A DNA stretch of 61,272 bases, counting the filler. It is 11 parts of 11 records of this genome, joined end to end, with 100 filler letters (N's around TTAATTAATTAA, not from the genome) between each part and the next. Parts side by side here need not be neighbours in the genome. Positions count along the whole stretch, not along the records: positions 39,595 to 44,540 come from SRR7504441_13498; 10 more parts are not named here. The stretch is one strand, 5' to 3'. Position numbers and translations under genes: made by a program. Below, in pieces: positions 7,833 to 56,604 of the stretch. A model generated the notes under the pieces. It saw only the letters and a program-made list of their open reading frames with translations. It was not told where the DNA came from and made no database searches. The stretch's first letter is position 1. The number at the start of each line of letters is the position of its first letter.

Positions 7833-7932
7833 NNNNNNNNNNNNNNNNNNNNNNNNNNNNNNNNNNNNNNNNNNNNTTAATTAATTAANNNNNNNNNNNN
7901 NNNNNNNNNNNNNNNNNNNNNNNNNNNNNNNN
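7833..7932. other. Artificial contig linker
   Basis: 44 N + TTAATTAATTAA (stops in all six frames) + 44 N. Confidence 0.98.
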
Positions 7933-10989: not shown

Positions 10990-11089
10990 NNNNNNNNNNN
11001 NNNNNNNNNNNNNNNNNNNNNNNNNNNNNNNNNTTAATTAATTAANNNNNNNNNNNNNNNNNNNNNNNNNNNNNNNNNNNNNNNNNNNN
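10990..11089. other. Artificial contig linker
   Basis: N44-TTAATTAATTAA-N44. Confidence 0.98.
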
Positions 11090-16199: not shown

Positions 16200-16299
16200 N
16201 NNNNNNNNNNNNNNNNNNNNNNNNNNNNNNNNNNNNNNNNNNNTTAATTAATTAANNNNNNNNNNNNNNNNNNNNNNNNNNNNNNNNNNNNNNNNNNNN
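16200..16299. other. Artificial contig linker
   Basis: N44-TTAATTAATTAA-N44. Confidence 0.98.
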
Positions 16300-16326: not shown

Positions 16327-17200
16327 CGGCCAGGCACCTGCACGCCTCCCACGAGCGCCGAGATGCTCCCATACAGCAGCGGGTTCAGCTTGTGCTGCAC
16401 CGCCCGCGAGCAGTGCCTAGCCCCCGCTCCCCCCCGCCCCCGCCGAGTAGGCGCACCGTTGGGTGTAAAAGAGCGTCATGGCCGCAATGAAGGTGAATCC
16501 GACCACCTGGCGGGGTGAGGGCGGGGCGGCGGCGGCCGGCACCACAGAGATGTAGATCGTGAACGACTGGCGGCCGAACATGTCGATCAGCTGCCAGAAG
16601 TCGCTGCCCCCCGGTTATCGCGGCAGCCGGGTTGGGCACCGGGTGGGCTGGGCGCGCGCCCCGAAGATGCAGGTGGTTGTGGCTCCGAGGAAGATCACTA
16701 TGGTGGACGCGATCTCAACCGGACCGACCTCCTCCTTCAAGAAGTATGACGAGAGCAGCGCGTTCAGCAGCACCTGCCCGCAGAGCTCGGCAGACTCGCC
16801 GGGGGGCGGCTGCCGTGACGGAGGTGAGTGGGGCGATGTCAATCAGCGGCGCGTGGAGCAAGGCGAGCGCGTCAAACACACCTGCCGTCCGTTAAATCAG
16901 AGCTAGACACCCCGCCGCACCGCCCATCGCCACGAACAGGAGTCCCGTCCACCTGGCGGCCGGTCGGGCCGGGGCCGGCCGGCCGGGCACCAGCGCCATC
17001 GGATGATGTAGTGCTCCCACTCGTTGACGTTGTGCGAATGCTTCTGGAGCACGAGCCCGGTCGAGGCGCAGAAACTCGCGATCAGAGAGAACAGCGTGCC
17101 CTCCGCACGGCCCATCCTTTCGCCGCTCCGCCCTCGCCCCTTGTCGCGGCCGGGCCAACCGACTTTTGAGAGGCAGCATCCCGTCAGCCAGCTGCAGCAT
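16327..17200 (-). CDS. NIPA-type Mg2+ transporter (DMT superfamily), 3' end truncated
   Basis: GLVLQKHSH, RWRWWTGLLF and VLLNALLSSYFLKEEV..STIVIFLG after removing short introns. Start is 17200 or 17179. Confidence 0.75.
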
Positions 17201-21260: not shown

Positions 21261-21360
21261 NNNNNNNNNNNNNNNNNNNNNNNNNNNNNNNNNNNNNNNN
21301 NNNNTTAATTAATTAANNNNNNNNNNNNNNNNNNNNNNNNNNNNNNNNNNNNNNNNNNNN
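21261..21360. other. Artificial contig linker
   Basis: N44-TTAATTAATTAA-N44. Confidence 0.98.
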
Positions 21361-25684: not shown

Positions 25685-25784
25685 NNNNNNNNNNNNNNNN
25701 NNNNNNNNNNNNNNNNNNNNNNNNNNNNTTAATTAATTAANNNNNNNNNNNNNNNNNNNNNNNNNNNNNNNNNNNNNNNNNNNN
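25685..25784. other. Artificial contig linker
   Basis: N44-TTAATTAATTAA-N44. Confidence 0.98.
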
Positions 25785-30444: not shown

Positions 30445-30544
30445 NNNNNNNNNNNNNNNNNNNNNNNNNNNNNNNNNNNNNNNNNNNNTTAATTAATTAA
30501 NNNNNNNNNNNNNNNNNNNNNNNNNNNNNNNNNNNNNNNNNNNN
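30445..30544. other. Artificial contig linker
   Basis: N44-TTAATTAATTAA-N44. Confidence 0.98.
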
Positions 30545-38979: not shown

Positions 38980-39430
38980 GAACAATTCGCAGCACCTCGG
39001 TGTCTTTATCTATCAGAAACTCAATACGTAATGGAATCAAAAGTTTTTTCGAGCTTACTGAGTAAGTCTTATACTGCAAAACTTTTATTAAAGTACTGAA
39101 CAATGTACAAACAATCCAACAAGCACGATTTGACACAATCATGTTACGAGTATGATCGTTACAGGATACATCGAAAGTCCATCATTGAAGGTGCCAGTCG
39201 TGCCACAGCCACACCGCTCGAGGATAGCTCGAGGAATCGTCCACAATCGTCCATTGCCGTACCTTGCGTACCAACCTAGCACTAACTACGTACCTAGCGC
39301 CCATGGATATTAACCTAGCGCTCCTTGAAGCTGTGCGCTCGTACATTAGTAGACGCTGTAGTGAAGGACACGAGGACAGATGGATGCCAGTGAAGGACAG
39401 CCGCTAGACAGAGGCTGCCGTTAGGCAATC

Positions 39431-39494
39431 ATGGCCAAGACGCGCCCAGAGGCGGAGCCGGACTGCTTCGAGGTGGAGCGGATCGTGGCCCGGC
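39431..39494 (+). CDS. Start of a chromodomain protein, cut by the linker
   Basis: MAKTRPEAEPDCFEVERIVAR resembles the chromodomain start (Y/F)EVE(K/R)I. Confidence 0.55.
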
Positions 39495-39594
39495 NNNNNN
39501 NNNNNNNNNNNNNNNNNNNNNNNNNNNNNNNNNNNNNNTTAATTAATTAANNNNNNNNNNNNNNNNNNNNNNNNNNNNNNNNNNNNNNNNNNNN
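39495..39594. other. Artificial contig linker
   Basis: N44-TTAATTAATTAA-N44. Confidence 0.98.
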
Positions 39595-39629
39595 CATTTG
39601 TCTCAACTGCCTTCAGTTGCCGGCCCGCA

Positions 39630-40577
39630 ATGACACTGCAGCTGCACCCCGGGGCGCTGCCGCCGCGGTTGTTCTCACAGGTGCTCGCGGAGGCTCGGCT
39701 GTTCGCCCAGCTGCAGCATGCCGCCCCGAGCCGCCCAGTCGGCGGGCAGCAGACCCAGTTCTACAGGCCGGGCCAGGCCGCCCCTCGGTGCGCCATCGAG
39801 CACGCGGTGCCGCCCACCCCGGCTGTGGCCGGCTCCAACTCGGGGGCAGCTTGAGGCGCTGCAGCGGCTGGCCGGCAGCCAGCTCGGGTGCGAGTGGTGG
39901 GTCCAATCCCGCGGGGGCACTCAGGGAATGAGCCTGCACTTTGATACGGACATGGTGCCCCCCACGCCGGCTGTGGCCGCAACCCGGGGCAGTGCCGACA
40001 GCACCAGACCGGCCAGTCCCGCTTCCCGGAGCGCTCGTCCGTGCTCTACCTGAGCCGGAGCGACAGCCCAACCTGCGTGCTGGAGCAGCGGTTGGGTTTA
40101 TCGTGGACAGGCCGGCCGCGGCTGGTGCCGAGTGAGCCTGACCGGGCCTGGCTGGTCCATCCGTGGACCAACCAGTACGCCACCTTCCCGGGCCACATGC
40201 TGCACGGGGTGCTGCCCTCGAGCTACCCGGTCGGCGGGCCCCGACTCACGCTGCTGGTGAATTTCTGGAATGAGCCGCCGCCGGCAGAGCCCTGCTGTGT
40301 CCCGACAACGGCTGAGCTGGCGGCCGAGCTAGCTAAGGCTGGCACAGCAGCCGAGGATCAGGCCCTACCTGCAGTAGAGCCGATCAGGCGAGAGGTGAAC
40401 GCGGCAGACCCCCGTTCCGAGGTCAGTCTGGTGGATGCGGAGGTGGCACTCACTACGGAGCGGGCGGCCGGGTCGCAATTTTGGGTGCCGAGCGACCAGC
40501 CGCCGGGAAGAGGAGGGATCACGTTAGTCAGCGGGATGGGCCGGCGCAGGCTTCTCGAAAATTGCTACGACCGGTAA
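39630..40577 (+). CDS. 2OG-Fe(II) oxygenase-superfamily protein (HxD..H)
   Basis: After removing introns 39807-39849 and 39955-39992: GCEWWVQ, LHFDTD, SSVLYL, FPGHMLHGV and RLTLLVNFW. Confidence 0.8.
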
Positions 40578-40696
40578 TGCTGTGGCCTGTGCACAATGTC
40601 ATATCCTTCCGTGCGTACATGTACCGTGATGTAATCTACTTAGTGTCTACTCGTACGTATACGTACACGTAGTCTACGTACGAGTACTCGTACATA

Positions 40697-41545
40697 TTAG
40701 TTGTCTAGCTTTGTTGCGGCCACCATGCTTGCGACCTTGGCTTTGTCAGCACACTTCCATTCGAACTCCGATTCTGCCGTATTCAGCTTCTCGCCCCCCA
40801 TGTGCACCGGCTGGCTCGGCCGGTAGCTCATGCGGCTGCGGACCAGCTCCCGCGCCGACCCGTGCACCTGCCGCACCCCTGTTGTCCTGATCAGCTCACC
40901 AATGTTGTCCTGATTCAGCCCGCCGCCCGCCGCGACCTCCACTCCAACGGAATCGCCCAGAGCCGCCATCCGCTGAAGCGCCCCCACCCCCTCCGGCGCA
41001 GAGCCGGCCCCGCCCGACGATAGCACCCGCGCCACCCCGCACCGCGCACACGCCCGCAGGGCTGCAACCGGGTCAGGAGTCACATCGATCGCCCGGTGAA
41101 ACGTGACCGGAAGTGGCGACGCGGCCGCCACCAATCGGGTGAGCAGCGGCTCGTCTACCAGCCCGTCCGGTCCGAGCACGCCCACCACAAACCCGTCGGC
41201 TCCTGCTGCCTTGAGGGCATCGAGGTCAGCGAAGATGATTTGCTGCTCGTTTAGGTCGTACAAGAAGTCGCCAGCCCGTGGCCGGAGCATGCAGTGTATG
41301 GGGATGCCACACCGGCGCCGGCAGCAGAGCATGGTGCCCACACTGGGGGTCAGCCCGCCCTCCACCAGACCGGCGCACAGCTCCACCCGCCCGGCCCCGC
41401 CAGCCTCTGCGGCGAGCGTGCCGGCAAGCGAGTCGGTGCAAACCTCCAGCAGACAGCCGCCGCTAGATCTAGAGGCCACGGCGGTCCGGCGCCGCACGAC
41501 CAGCAGCAGCGCACCCGCCGCTGCCCCGATCACAACCCGAAACAT
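40697..41545 (-). CDS. CUTC: CutC-family protein with an N-terminal hydrophobic/targeting extension
   Basis: LEVCTDS, GAGRVELC, EGGLTPS, MLRPRAGDFLY, VTFHRAID, RVLSSGG and QVHGS. Intronless. Confidence 0.93.
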   Translation of the reverse strand: MFRVVIGAAAGALLLVVRRRTAVASRSSGGCLLEVCTDSLAGTLAAEAGGAGRVELCAGLVEGGLTPSVGTMLCCRRRCGIPIHCMLRPRAGDFLYDLNEQQIIFADLDALKAAGADGFVVGVLGPDGLVDEPLLTRLVAAASPLPVTFHRAIDVTPDPVAALRACARCGVARVLSSGGAGSAPEGVGALQRMAALGDSVGVEVAAGGGLNQDNIGELIRTTGVRQVHGSARELVRSRMSYRPSQPVHMGGEKLNTAESEFEWKCADKAKVASMVAATKLDN

Positions 41546-41615
41546 GGCCGGAGGTCGAAGTCCGTTAAACTAGAACGGCCCGGCATAGGCAAGGCCCCTT
41601 CTATCTCGGCGAGGC

Positions 41616-42787
41616 ATGGGACCGAGAGGGAGCAAAGCAGTGGACGACTACGCGTACGTGGTTGGCCTGCATTCGTGGCCAATGCTCGGTCCATACTACT
41701 ATGGTGGTGCGCCCCTGCTGGCGTGCATCCCTCCAGCCGCTGCGGCAGACCCCCGAGGCCTCTCCCAGGCGGTTAAGGTGCGCCGGCACTCTGATCTTCA
41801 ACTCATCCAGCCGGGCGCTGGACGATCTGGGCGCTGGACGCTCCGGGATTGGGCGTTGTGGCAGCAGTTTGCTGCTGGTCCTCGTGTCAACCCCGTGGCC
41901 AAGGCACTCCTGCTCGGGACGCAATGCCGGGACTCGCCGCTGTGGCAGCTTCCCAACCCTGTGGCCGAGCAGGCTCAAACCCTGTGGCGGGGGCGGGGAG
42001 CTCACTGTTGGCCAGGTGTTCCTGGAGCTAAAGCGCCAGTGGAGCCGAGAATTGGTCACGGACAAAGCGGCCATCTCCATATGCGGCGAGGTGCGGTTCC
42101 CAGCGGGCACGGGCACCGTGGTCAACATGCTGCCGTTCGTGCTTGGCGACAAGGCATCTCTCCCGCCTGAGCTCCACCAGTACTGGCCTCTGATCGTGGC
42201 CTGCCCCACTCAGCCCTCGGAGCAGGGGAAGGTGCCTAACTTCGTTCGCCTGAGCATGGCCCTAACTAAACTGTTATTAACTAGCTGTGCAGGTCTGCTA
42301 CCTGACCGTCCAGGAATCCACCTCGGAAGGTGGGGCACCTCAGCGCCGTCGTGGCATCCACACCGAAGGCTTTCACTACAACAGAGGCCAGTGCCTCGAG
42401 CAGCCATGGTGGCATCCATGGGGAGGAGGGCAGGCCGGCCAATTCGCAGGAGGAATCTTCACATCCTCGAGCGTTTCGGAGTCCACTCGGCTCTGGGACG
42501 TGCAATTGCCCACTTATCGAGCTGGGTACAGCGCGGGTGGCGGGGACTGCGAGCACCTGCGTGGAGTCCTGCAAGATCACCCCTCAGTGAAGCCAGTGGC
42601 CGGGGAACTGTATTGGTTGACCGACGCTACGCCCCACGAGTCCCTGCCGCTGCCTCCTGGGTCTTTCAGGCAGTACTTTCGGCTTGTTACGTCTGATGTG
42701 GCAGTGTGGTGGGAGCAACATTCTACCCCAAACAGACTGGGAACGCAACCCGATGCAGAGATCCTAATGTCAAACAAATTTGAATGA
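41616..42787 (+). CDS. Uncharacterised protein with a probable double-stranded beta-helix dioxygenase fold (HxE..H)
   Basis: VNMLPF, VCYLTVQES, QRRRGIHTEG, GGIF, GDCEHLR, LYWLTDATPHES and RQYFRLV. GC-AG intron at 41973-42015 plus a second intron near 42232-42292. Confidence 0.7.
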
Positions 42788-44540: not shown

Positions 44541-44640
44541 NNNNNNNNNNNNNNNNNNNNNNNNNNNNNNNNNNNNNNNNNNNNTTAATTAATTAANNNN
44601 NNNNNNNNNNNNNNNNNNNNNNNNNNNNNNNNNNNNNNNN
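44541..44640. other. Artificial contig linker
   Basis: N44-TTAATTAATTAA-N44. Confidence 0.98.
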
Positions 44641-51474: not shown

Positions 51475-51574
51475 NNNNNNNNNNNNNNNNNNNNNNNNNN
51501 NNNNNNNNNNNNNNNNNNTTAATTAATTAANNNNNNNNNNNNNNNNNNNNNNNNNNNNNNNNNNNNNNNNNNNN
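51475..51574. other. Artificial contig linker
   Basis: N44-TTAATTAATTAA-N44. Confidence 0.98.
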
Positions 51575-56504: not shown

Positions 56505-56604
56505 NNNNNNNNNNNNNNNNNNNNNNNNNNNNNNNNNNNNNNNNNNNNTTAATTAATTAANNNNNNNNNNNNNNNNNNNNNNNNNNNNNNNNNNNNNNNN
56601 NNNN
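56505..56604. other. Artificial contig linker
   Basis: N44-TTAATTAATTAA-N44. Confidence 0.98.

Follow-up and report, generated by a model that had tools for sequence, protein, structure and literature searches.

How does a single gene come to hold two near-identical spliceosomal introns between unrelated exons? The question is posed by one contig (39595–44540) of a 61,272-nucleotide (nt) stretch of DNA, here called the window, in which 11 contigs of ~3–9 kb each are joined by ten N44-TTAATTAATTAA-N44 linkers, so that features spanning a linker are not physically linked. The source organism is read as an uncultured marine eukaryote. At the start of this contig an oxygenase-like gene is interrupted by two tiny introns, A and B, separated by a 35-codon exon. 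Our preferred reading, to which we give a probability of about 0.5, is a non-segmental same-gene intron duplication: a precise GT-to-AG copy, in the same orientation, placed 105 nt away and bringing no exon sequence with it. The origin of new spliceosomal introns is debated, and clean natural footprints of precise copying are few, a clean footprint being one in which likeness stops at GT and AG, no exon is duplicated and no transposon marks are seen; the A–B pair qualifies as such.

Are A and B introns at all? The original prediction gave their coordinates and sequences, a match at 23 of the first 25 nt, and phase 0 for both, with both removals needed to keep the frame, and each of these points was confirmed on re-analysis. 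The lengths of exons 1 and 2 (177 and 105 nt) place both introns in phase 0; retention of A brings in a TGA at 39852–39854, and retention of B shifts the frame towards a stop at 40051–40053. Both introns begin with GTGCC and end with GGGGCAG, with AG occurring solely at the 3′ end of each. When the three exons are joined and aligned to homologues, neither junction shows a gap relative to the best of them, P0001. With the acceptor of B as given, the segment from DTDM to SSV holds 14 residues, equal to P0001; an alternative acceptor at 40001 keeps the frame but leaves three residues fewer, and was rejected. A few residues past junction A, the window protein has fewer residues than P0001, the gap falling in a loop that varies across all homologues.

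Splicing of such introns on this contig is supported by RNA. Words of the contig occur at low shares (0.05–0.07) in six marine or aquatic sequencing runs from six studies, two of the runs being metatranscriptomes, and contigs from four of the six (X1, X6, X2 and X3) were compared with it for RNA and DNA support. RNA confirms two GT..AG introns in neighbouring gene sequence, one of 42 nt at 41707–41748 (run X1; short side 24 nt) and one of 61 nt at 42232–42292 (runs X1 and X6; sides 120 and 72 nt); these skips show that tiny GTGC...GCAG introns are truly spliced here. The X1 RNA contig also departs from the window by one missing base at 42320 and an A for G at 42330, positions at which X6 equals the window; strain variation or contig error could account for this. 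An ab initio gene finder, which combined codon log-odds, splice-site matrices and a length prior in two passes, put the acceptor of B at 40001 and found neither RNA-confirmed intron in its first pass; in the second pass it places both A and B exactly and finds one of the two RNA-confirmed introns. Donor scores (5.9 for A, 6.5 for B) and acceptor scores (7.9 and 4.0) lie within the range of the other predictions, and the lengths of 43 and 38 nt fit the profile of the organism, whose modal length in the first-pass training set of 54 small introns is 38 nt. Taken with the colinearity of the protein, this makes A and B very probably real spliceosomal introns of the U2-type GT-AG class.

How far does their likeness exceed what introns of this kind share anyway? 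The gene finder predicts 110 introns in the window, or about one for every 371 nt predicted to be coding, and 95 of these are of 30–55 nt; all 4465 pairs of the 95 were compared. Over the first 26 nt A and B agree at 23 positions, against 18 for the next best (five pairs) and a mean of 9.87 (standard deviation (s.d.) 2.40). Their global alignment score is 25 (next best 18; mean 1.87, s.d. 4.58), their interior local score with the splice ends removed is 19 (next best 15; mean 6.28, s.d. 1.69) and their z against composition-preserving shuffles is 6.06 (next best 4.97). The pair ranks first by all four measures and is tied for first by longest common substring. When the set is narrowed to the 65 introns with lengths that are not multiples of 3 (2080 pairs), the identity again stands at 23 against a next best of 18. 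With position-specific base frequencies taken from the other 93 tiny introns, the probability of at least 23 matches in 26 is 4.2e-8 per pair, corresponding to 1.9e-4 expected pairs in all 4465 and 3e-6 in the 70 adjacent same-gene pairs. Such likeness is thus not common among the GC-rich tiny introns of this organism, a test that the original prediction had itself proposed.

The likeness of the ends themselves must be discounted. The consensus of the 95 introns has an unusual form, with an exonic G followed by GTGC and then C or G at the donor, and a G-run ending in GCAG, followed by exonic GT, at the acceptor; on our reading of the predicted introns, a CAAC- or CTGAG-like motif often stands ~11–14 nt before the 3′ end. 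GTGCC, CAAC and GGGGCAG are therefore organism-wide signals, and their sharing by A and B carries no weight. The shared CAAC..GGGGCAG to which the original prediction pointed is present, but as evidence of copying it falls away, being part of this general consensus. What counts is the stretch of 20 nt that follows GTGCC. In the core, A and B differ by substitutions at intron positions 6 and 12, and over their whole length a global alignment holds three substitutions, one 4-nt gap and one 1-nt gap.

By these sequence comparisons chance and composition are excluded, and the two introns share either descent or a strong common constraint; common descent we regard as likely, and strongly so. An explanation by compositional accident, or by misassembly or false frameshifts in a fragmentary metagenome assembly, could call on the make-up of the window from short contigs joined by N linkers, on the G+C-rich introns (G 40%, C 31%, T 16% and A 13% in the first-pass training set) with their strong shared end consensus, and on the position of both junctions outside RNA cover. 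It has to contend with the first rank of the pair on four measures, where far less than one pair of this quality is expected, and two errors would not each bring GT..AG, a branch-like CAAC, the local consensus and exact colinearity with homologues. We consider it very improbable.

The likeness is bounded by the introns themselves, beginning at the donor and ending at the acceptor (coordinates in Table 1). In the ten exonic bases on each side, A and B agree at 4/10 positions upstream and 2/10 downstream, exon 2 shows no relation to the beginning of exon 3, and the window protein follows its homologues colinearly; the claim that the flanking exons are unrelated, with no exon duplication, therefore stands. 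An origin by segmental or tandem duplication was rejected, since neither an adjoining exon nor either intron is a copy of neighbouring exon sequence. The further claim, that there is neither a target-site duplication nor a terminal inverted repeat, holds in its first part: no direct repeat lies across the borders at 43 nt for A or at 38 nt for B, and hence there is no length-neutral target-site duplication. The GTGCC that recurs across the 3′ junction of B is at a distance of 37 nt, against an intron length of 38 nt, and is therefore not one either. It may reflect microhomology or chance.

The second part does not hold as worded, for a short inverted repeat (TGCC../..GGCA) is present, with four contiguous terminal pairs in A and six in B. 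It is again a property of the organism. The acceptor consensus (GGCA) is the reverse complement of the donor consensus (TGCC), and many introns can close a terminal helix of 3–6 bp that joins the splice sites. Across the 95 introns, pairing between an intron's own ends (2.32) equals that with permuted partners (2.30; P 0.43), with no covariation beyond the consensus. As the mark of a mobile element the repeat was accordingly set aside, splice consensus being its probable source.

Table 1. Positions in the window of the twin introns, their host exons, associated short features and the linkers between contigs.
Feature	Position	Strand	Remarks
Exon 1	39630..39806	+	177 nt from first ATG; aligns with N-terminal part of P0001
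Intron A	39807..39849	+	43 nt, GT..AG, phase 0, length 3n+1
Exon 2	39850..39954	+	105 nt, 35 codons; contains GCEWWVQ and HFDTD (HxD) motif
Intron B	39955..39992	+	38 nt, GT..AG, phase 0, length 3n+2
Exon 3	39993..40577	+	stop TAA 40575–40577; second His (LHGVLP) and R-x-T motif
Shared core, copy 1	39806..39831	+	26 nt, reference copy of direct repeat D1; begins at the G before the donor
Shared core, copy 2	39954..39979	+	26 nt, 92% identical in the direct-repeat search, 148 nt downstream of copy 1
GTGCC across 3′ junction of B	39992..39996	+	repeats first 5 nt of B (39955–39959), 37 nt apart
Hairpin CCGGC-TGTG-GCCGG in A	39819..39832	+	5 bp, minimum-free-energy fold; same place in B (39967–39980) 4 bp
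Linkers, set 1	7833–7932, 10990–11089, 16200–16299, 21261–21360, 25685–25784
Linkers, set 2	30445–30544, 39495–39594, 44541–44640, 51475–51574, 56505–56604

The junctions of B bear on a purely DNA-level origin, in which a break would have been mended by copying the nearby intron, through template switching or filler synthesis, and only a spliceable copy would have survived selection. Templated insertions typically copy nearby DNA, and here the copies lie close together in the same orientation. The GTGCC recurrence, together with a spliced junction at B (G joined to TGCCG) that equals the first six bases of intron A, offers possible microhomology. The first exonic base after B is T, as in 2/95 introns, and after A it is C (19/95), where G is usual (64/95); neither intron thus sits in the preferred context, and the T after B would be unusual for a target chosen by the spliceosome. 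Against repair stands the exact extent of the copy: a repair polymerase would have no cause to start at GT and stop at AG, so that selection must be invoked. The other junctions lack microhomology, removal of one GTGCC repeat with the insert shifts the frame (a 37-nt repeat distance against a 38-nt intron), and chance can account for five matching nucleotides in what is a consensus donor motif. Repair of this kind seems improbable to us.

If A and B belonged to a larger set of copies, others should be sought beyond the host gene. In the window, a 24-nt pattern allowing up to three mismatches finds just two sites, where shuffled sequences lead one to expect 0.01 and 0/100 shuffles hold two or more. 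Scans of sequence collections used the 24-nt pattern with 22 fixed bases. In the metagenome collection it meets one locus (L001), inside an outer-membrane beta-barrel gene beside an IS110-family transposase, and among 185,579 prokaryote genomes one site, in a bacterial metagenome-assembled genome; both were set aside as chance matches in bacteria. The pattern was not found in viral contigs, and no eukaryotic match to it appears in the metagenome, genome or viral collections. Within the window, 0/93 of the other tiny introns resemble A or B beyond background, the best interior local scores being 12 and 11 where the top non-twin pairs reach 15. Both known copies (2/2) lie in the same gene and in the same orientation within the 61 kb examined.

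Two introns of a NIPA gene (16507–16542 and 16953–16990, minus strand) had been offered as a weaker parallel. Their raw global score of 18 is tied for second, but z is 1.44 and their rank 933/4465; composition alone explains the pair, and it was rejected as low complexity. A predicted 36-nt intron in the NIPA-like gene (16604–16639, minus strand) loosely recalls B (GTGCCC..CCGGCTG..AACC..GGGGCAG) without being among the best partners of A or B, and its resemblance is probably consensus. More generally, same-gene pairs take 6 of the top 20 places by raw score, against 1.1 expected, and after control for composition 2 of the top 20 against 1.1 and 19 of the top 200 against 11.0; overall they are not more alike than other pairs (Mann–Whitney P 0.42). 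Any tendency of introns of the same gene to be alike is at most faint.

These searches bear on the possibility that mobile introns of ~40 nt, either DNA-transposon-like or mobilized by the spliceosome, form a dispersed family to which A and B belong, the two having happened to land in one gene. Introner families described in a survey that took in genomes from TARA metagenomes have median lengths down to 30 nt and GC up to 83%, and show an enrichment among aquatic organisms (Gozashti et al. 2022, PMC9860276). A family is defined there by at least four similar introns in non-paralogous genes, with likeness near both borders. Short GC-rich members in an aquatic organism would suit A and B, as would likeness that reaches both borders, intron ends that form short inverted repeats, the density of predicted introns and the fact that our search covered 61 kb. 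On the other side, no further member was met among the 93 other tiny introns, as a third pattern site in the window (up to three mismatches) or as a eukaryotic match in the metagenome, genome and viral collections. There is no length-neutral target-site duplication, the terminal complementarity is probably consensus rather than an element feature, and two random genome-wide insertions 105 nt apart are very unlikely without local hopping. We hold such a family to be unlikely, though the most probable of the alternatives.

Could the two instead be independent, possibly old introns whose likeness is maintained by selection acting on a cis element common to both (a hairpin, say, or a site where a bound protein couples the splicing of the two), perhaps with help from gene conversion? 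Both do fold into a hairpin, with the C-rich 5′ end paired to the G-rich 3′ end, and retention of either brings a premature stop, which makes coordinated regulation conceivable. Read in frame from the upstream exon, the cores (39807–39830 and 39955–39978) both spell VPPTPAVA, and their two differences are “synonymous”, a hint of constraint; a coding source for VPPTPAVA was sought in the window, where just two loose matches, with two substitutions each, were found. Unusual RNA structure was nevertheless rejected, the folding energies being ordinary (A −17.3 kcal/mol, rank 24/95; B −17.5 kcal/mol, rank 21/95) and the hairpin weaker in B. Independent origin would have to reach 23/26 identity at the per-pair probability given above, gene conversion in 40-nt tracts between unrelated exons needs prior likeness, and same-gene pairs in general are not more alike than others. 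On this balance a shared cis element is quite improbable, less probable than templated repair.

Likeness far above background, which stops at the intron borders and leaves no room for exon duplication, makes common descent by precise copying the best reading. One intron would have been copied from the other, or both from one source intron. In the route that seems likeliest, the post-splicing spliceosome would keep hold of the excised intron where the gene is being transcribed and insert it by reverse splicing into the transcript from which it came; reverse transcription and recombination would follow. Alternatively, the intron might enter the gene's displaced single-stranded DNA directly. Either way the outcome would be a new and immediately spliceable intron, in which three substitutions and two small deletions or insertions would afterwards accumulate. 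Placement of copies in one gene and in one orientation is what one would expect if the spliceosome acted at its own site of transcription. That the route was specifically spliceosome-mediated transposition, as the footprint suggests, we advance tentatively, at somewhat less than even odds.

Several observations weigh against same-gene copying or its proposed route. The background set is ab initio, finds one of the two RNA-confirmed introns (the 61-nt one is missed) and surely holds false calls. The RNA contigs (X1 and X6) span only 41682–42502 of the contig and thus cover neither the A nor the B junction, and depth is zero at 39595–39924 in all four runs, cover beginning at 40011. With ~8% substitutions and two indels the copies are not very recent in look; “recent precise intron copying”, as originally proposed, keeps its support from the likeness, borders and flanks as far as the copying goes, and “recent” is not supported, given these differences. 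Both core differences fall on synonymous third positions of VPPTPAVA (chance ~1/9), a pattern not predicted by neutral intron decay. No R-loop signature appears in the GC skew, which stays flat around the introns (−0.13 to +0.11). The 61 kb of the organism that were examined leave room for a dispersed family. At the level of sequence, no feature separates an RNA route from a DNA route, and the route by reverse splicing plus cDNA faces theoretical objections, among them a “rate paradox” (PMC3443670).

Where does the pair stand among known systems? The closest are the same-gene intron duplications of fungi, a small class whose 82 members are spread over 11 species (van der Burgt et al. 2012, via Collemare et al. 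2013, PMC3609843); according to the account given there, about half lack exon duplication and are read as transposition within the same transcript, and three introns gained in this way are cited for Caenorhabditis elegans (PMC3609843). The common ground is near-identical introns at different positions of one gene with flanking exons that are not duplicated. The differences are an uncultured marine eukaryote as host, ultra-short G+C-rich introns (38–43 nt), a single known pair and a gained position that relatives do not set.

With introners (Micromonas, Aureococcus, fungi and others; PMC9860276, PMC4540971) the pair shares similarity over the whole intron to both borders and the sense orientation, and some introner families, as described in those papers, are without transposon hallmarks and thought to be moved by the spliceosome. 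It differs from introner families in its two copies in one gene, with none among the 93 other tiny introns of the window, in the missing target-site duplication, and in a terminal inverted repeat that is splice consensus. An R-loop variant of the spliceosomal route has also been put forward, under which insertions close to the parent intron would be favoured (Simmons et al. 2015, PMC4540971; PMC10996645).

Two spliceosomal intron transposition events have been captured in yeast (Lee & Stevens 2016, via PMC10996645), and reverse splicing has been proposed for Oikopleura (Denoeud et al. 2010, via PMC4122922). These cases resemble ours in the precise GT-to-AG copying of an existing intron into a new site without any accompanying exon sequence; as reported in those sources they are reporter-selected events or genome-wide inferences, whereas here there is the footprint alone, from sequence. 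Other models of intron gain, by tandem genomic duplication of an exon stretch that contains AGGT or by duplication of a segment made up of intron and exon (PMC3443670), likewise set a new intron near existing sequence of the same gene, but in those models the new intron or its flanks copy exon, while here the exons are unrelated (4/10 and 2/10) and the protein is colinear. On present evidence the A–B pair adds one example to a known, rare class and reveals no new mechanism. In Oikopleura, too, similar intron pairs reportedly occur within single genes.

The organism's introns are so short that a 40-nt copy carries everything needed for splicing. This invites a bolder and improbable extension, in which the pair would be spliceosome-mediated transposition caught in the act, “micro-introners” of this kind would have built the dense landscape of tiny introns, and the palindromic consensus G-TGCC...GGCA-G would be their decayed trace. 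If it were true, a functional intron that is little more than its splice signals would be able to copy itself into its own gene.

What gene received the introns? A protein search with exon 3 returned six proteins at E ≤ 0.001 among 1560 candidates (P0001–P0006), the best being P0001 (334 amino acids; 43% identity, 99% coverage to exon 3). An H-x-D motif, a later H and R-x-T are invariant in the alignment of the six homologues; HxD lies in exon 2, with intron B directly after it, and the second H in exon 3. Pfam gives no family for the host exons or for 4/6 of the homologues, and a profile of the six homologues finds no match among PDB sequences. The structural model of P0001 has a mean pLDDT of 54.3, with the core alone usable. 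Its best match is the prolyl-4-hydroxylase (P4H) of Pseudomonas putida (4iw3_A; E 7e-8, TM-score normalized to target 0.64), and many PHD2 chains match too. In the Atlas, P0001 is positioned among unnamed eukaryotic clusters. Judged from the modelled fold and the invariant residues, the host gene belongs with the P4H/PHD-like 2-oxoglutarate (2OG)-Fe(II) oxygenases and their double-stranded beta-helix fold, in a eukaryotic family that has neither a name nor a Pfam model; its HxD...H residues would form the metal/catalytic triad, going by the known motif of this oxygenase family. A second, unrelated 2OG-Fe(II) oxygenase is encoded on another contig (31577–32608, minus strand; Pfam 2OG-FeII_Oxy_5, E 4.8e-14).

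The reading frame of exon 1 is open back to the contig start at 39595, and the true 5′ end of the host gene may lie on another contig. The start of an open reading frame at 39425–39494, just ahead of the host gene, is across a linker and has no physical linkage to it. On its other side the host gene adjoins a CutC homologue (40700–41569, minus strand). Elsewhere the window encodes Myb, WD40+GYF, GH115, GH127 and GST-like proteins; coding regions throughout are G+C-rich with the usual codon-position pattern, and spacers are A+T-richer. Two of the spacers around the host gene, at 40640–40700 and 39230–39310, are A+T-richer with many short TACGTA-type palindromes and hold 13–15-nt direct and inverted repeats (D7, D10, I8 and I21), which may be promoter, terminator or repeat elements.

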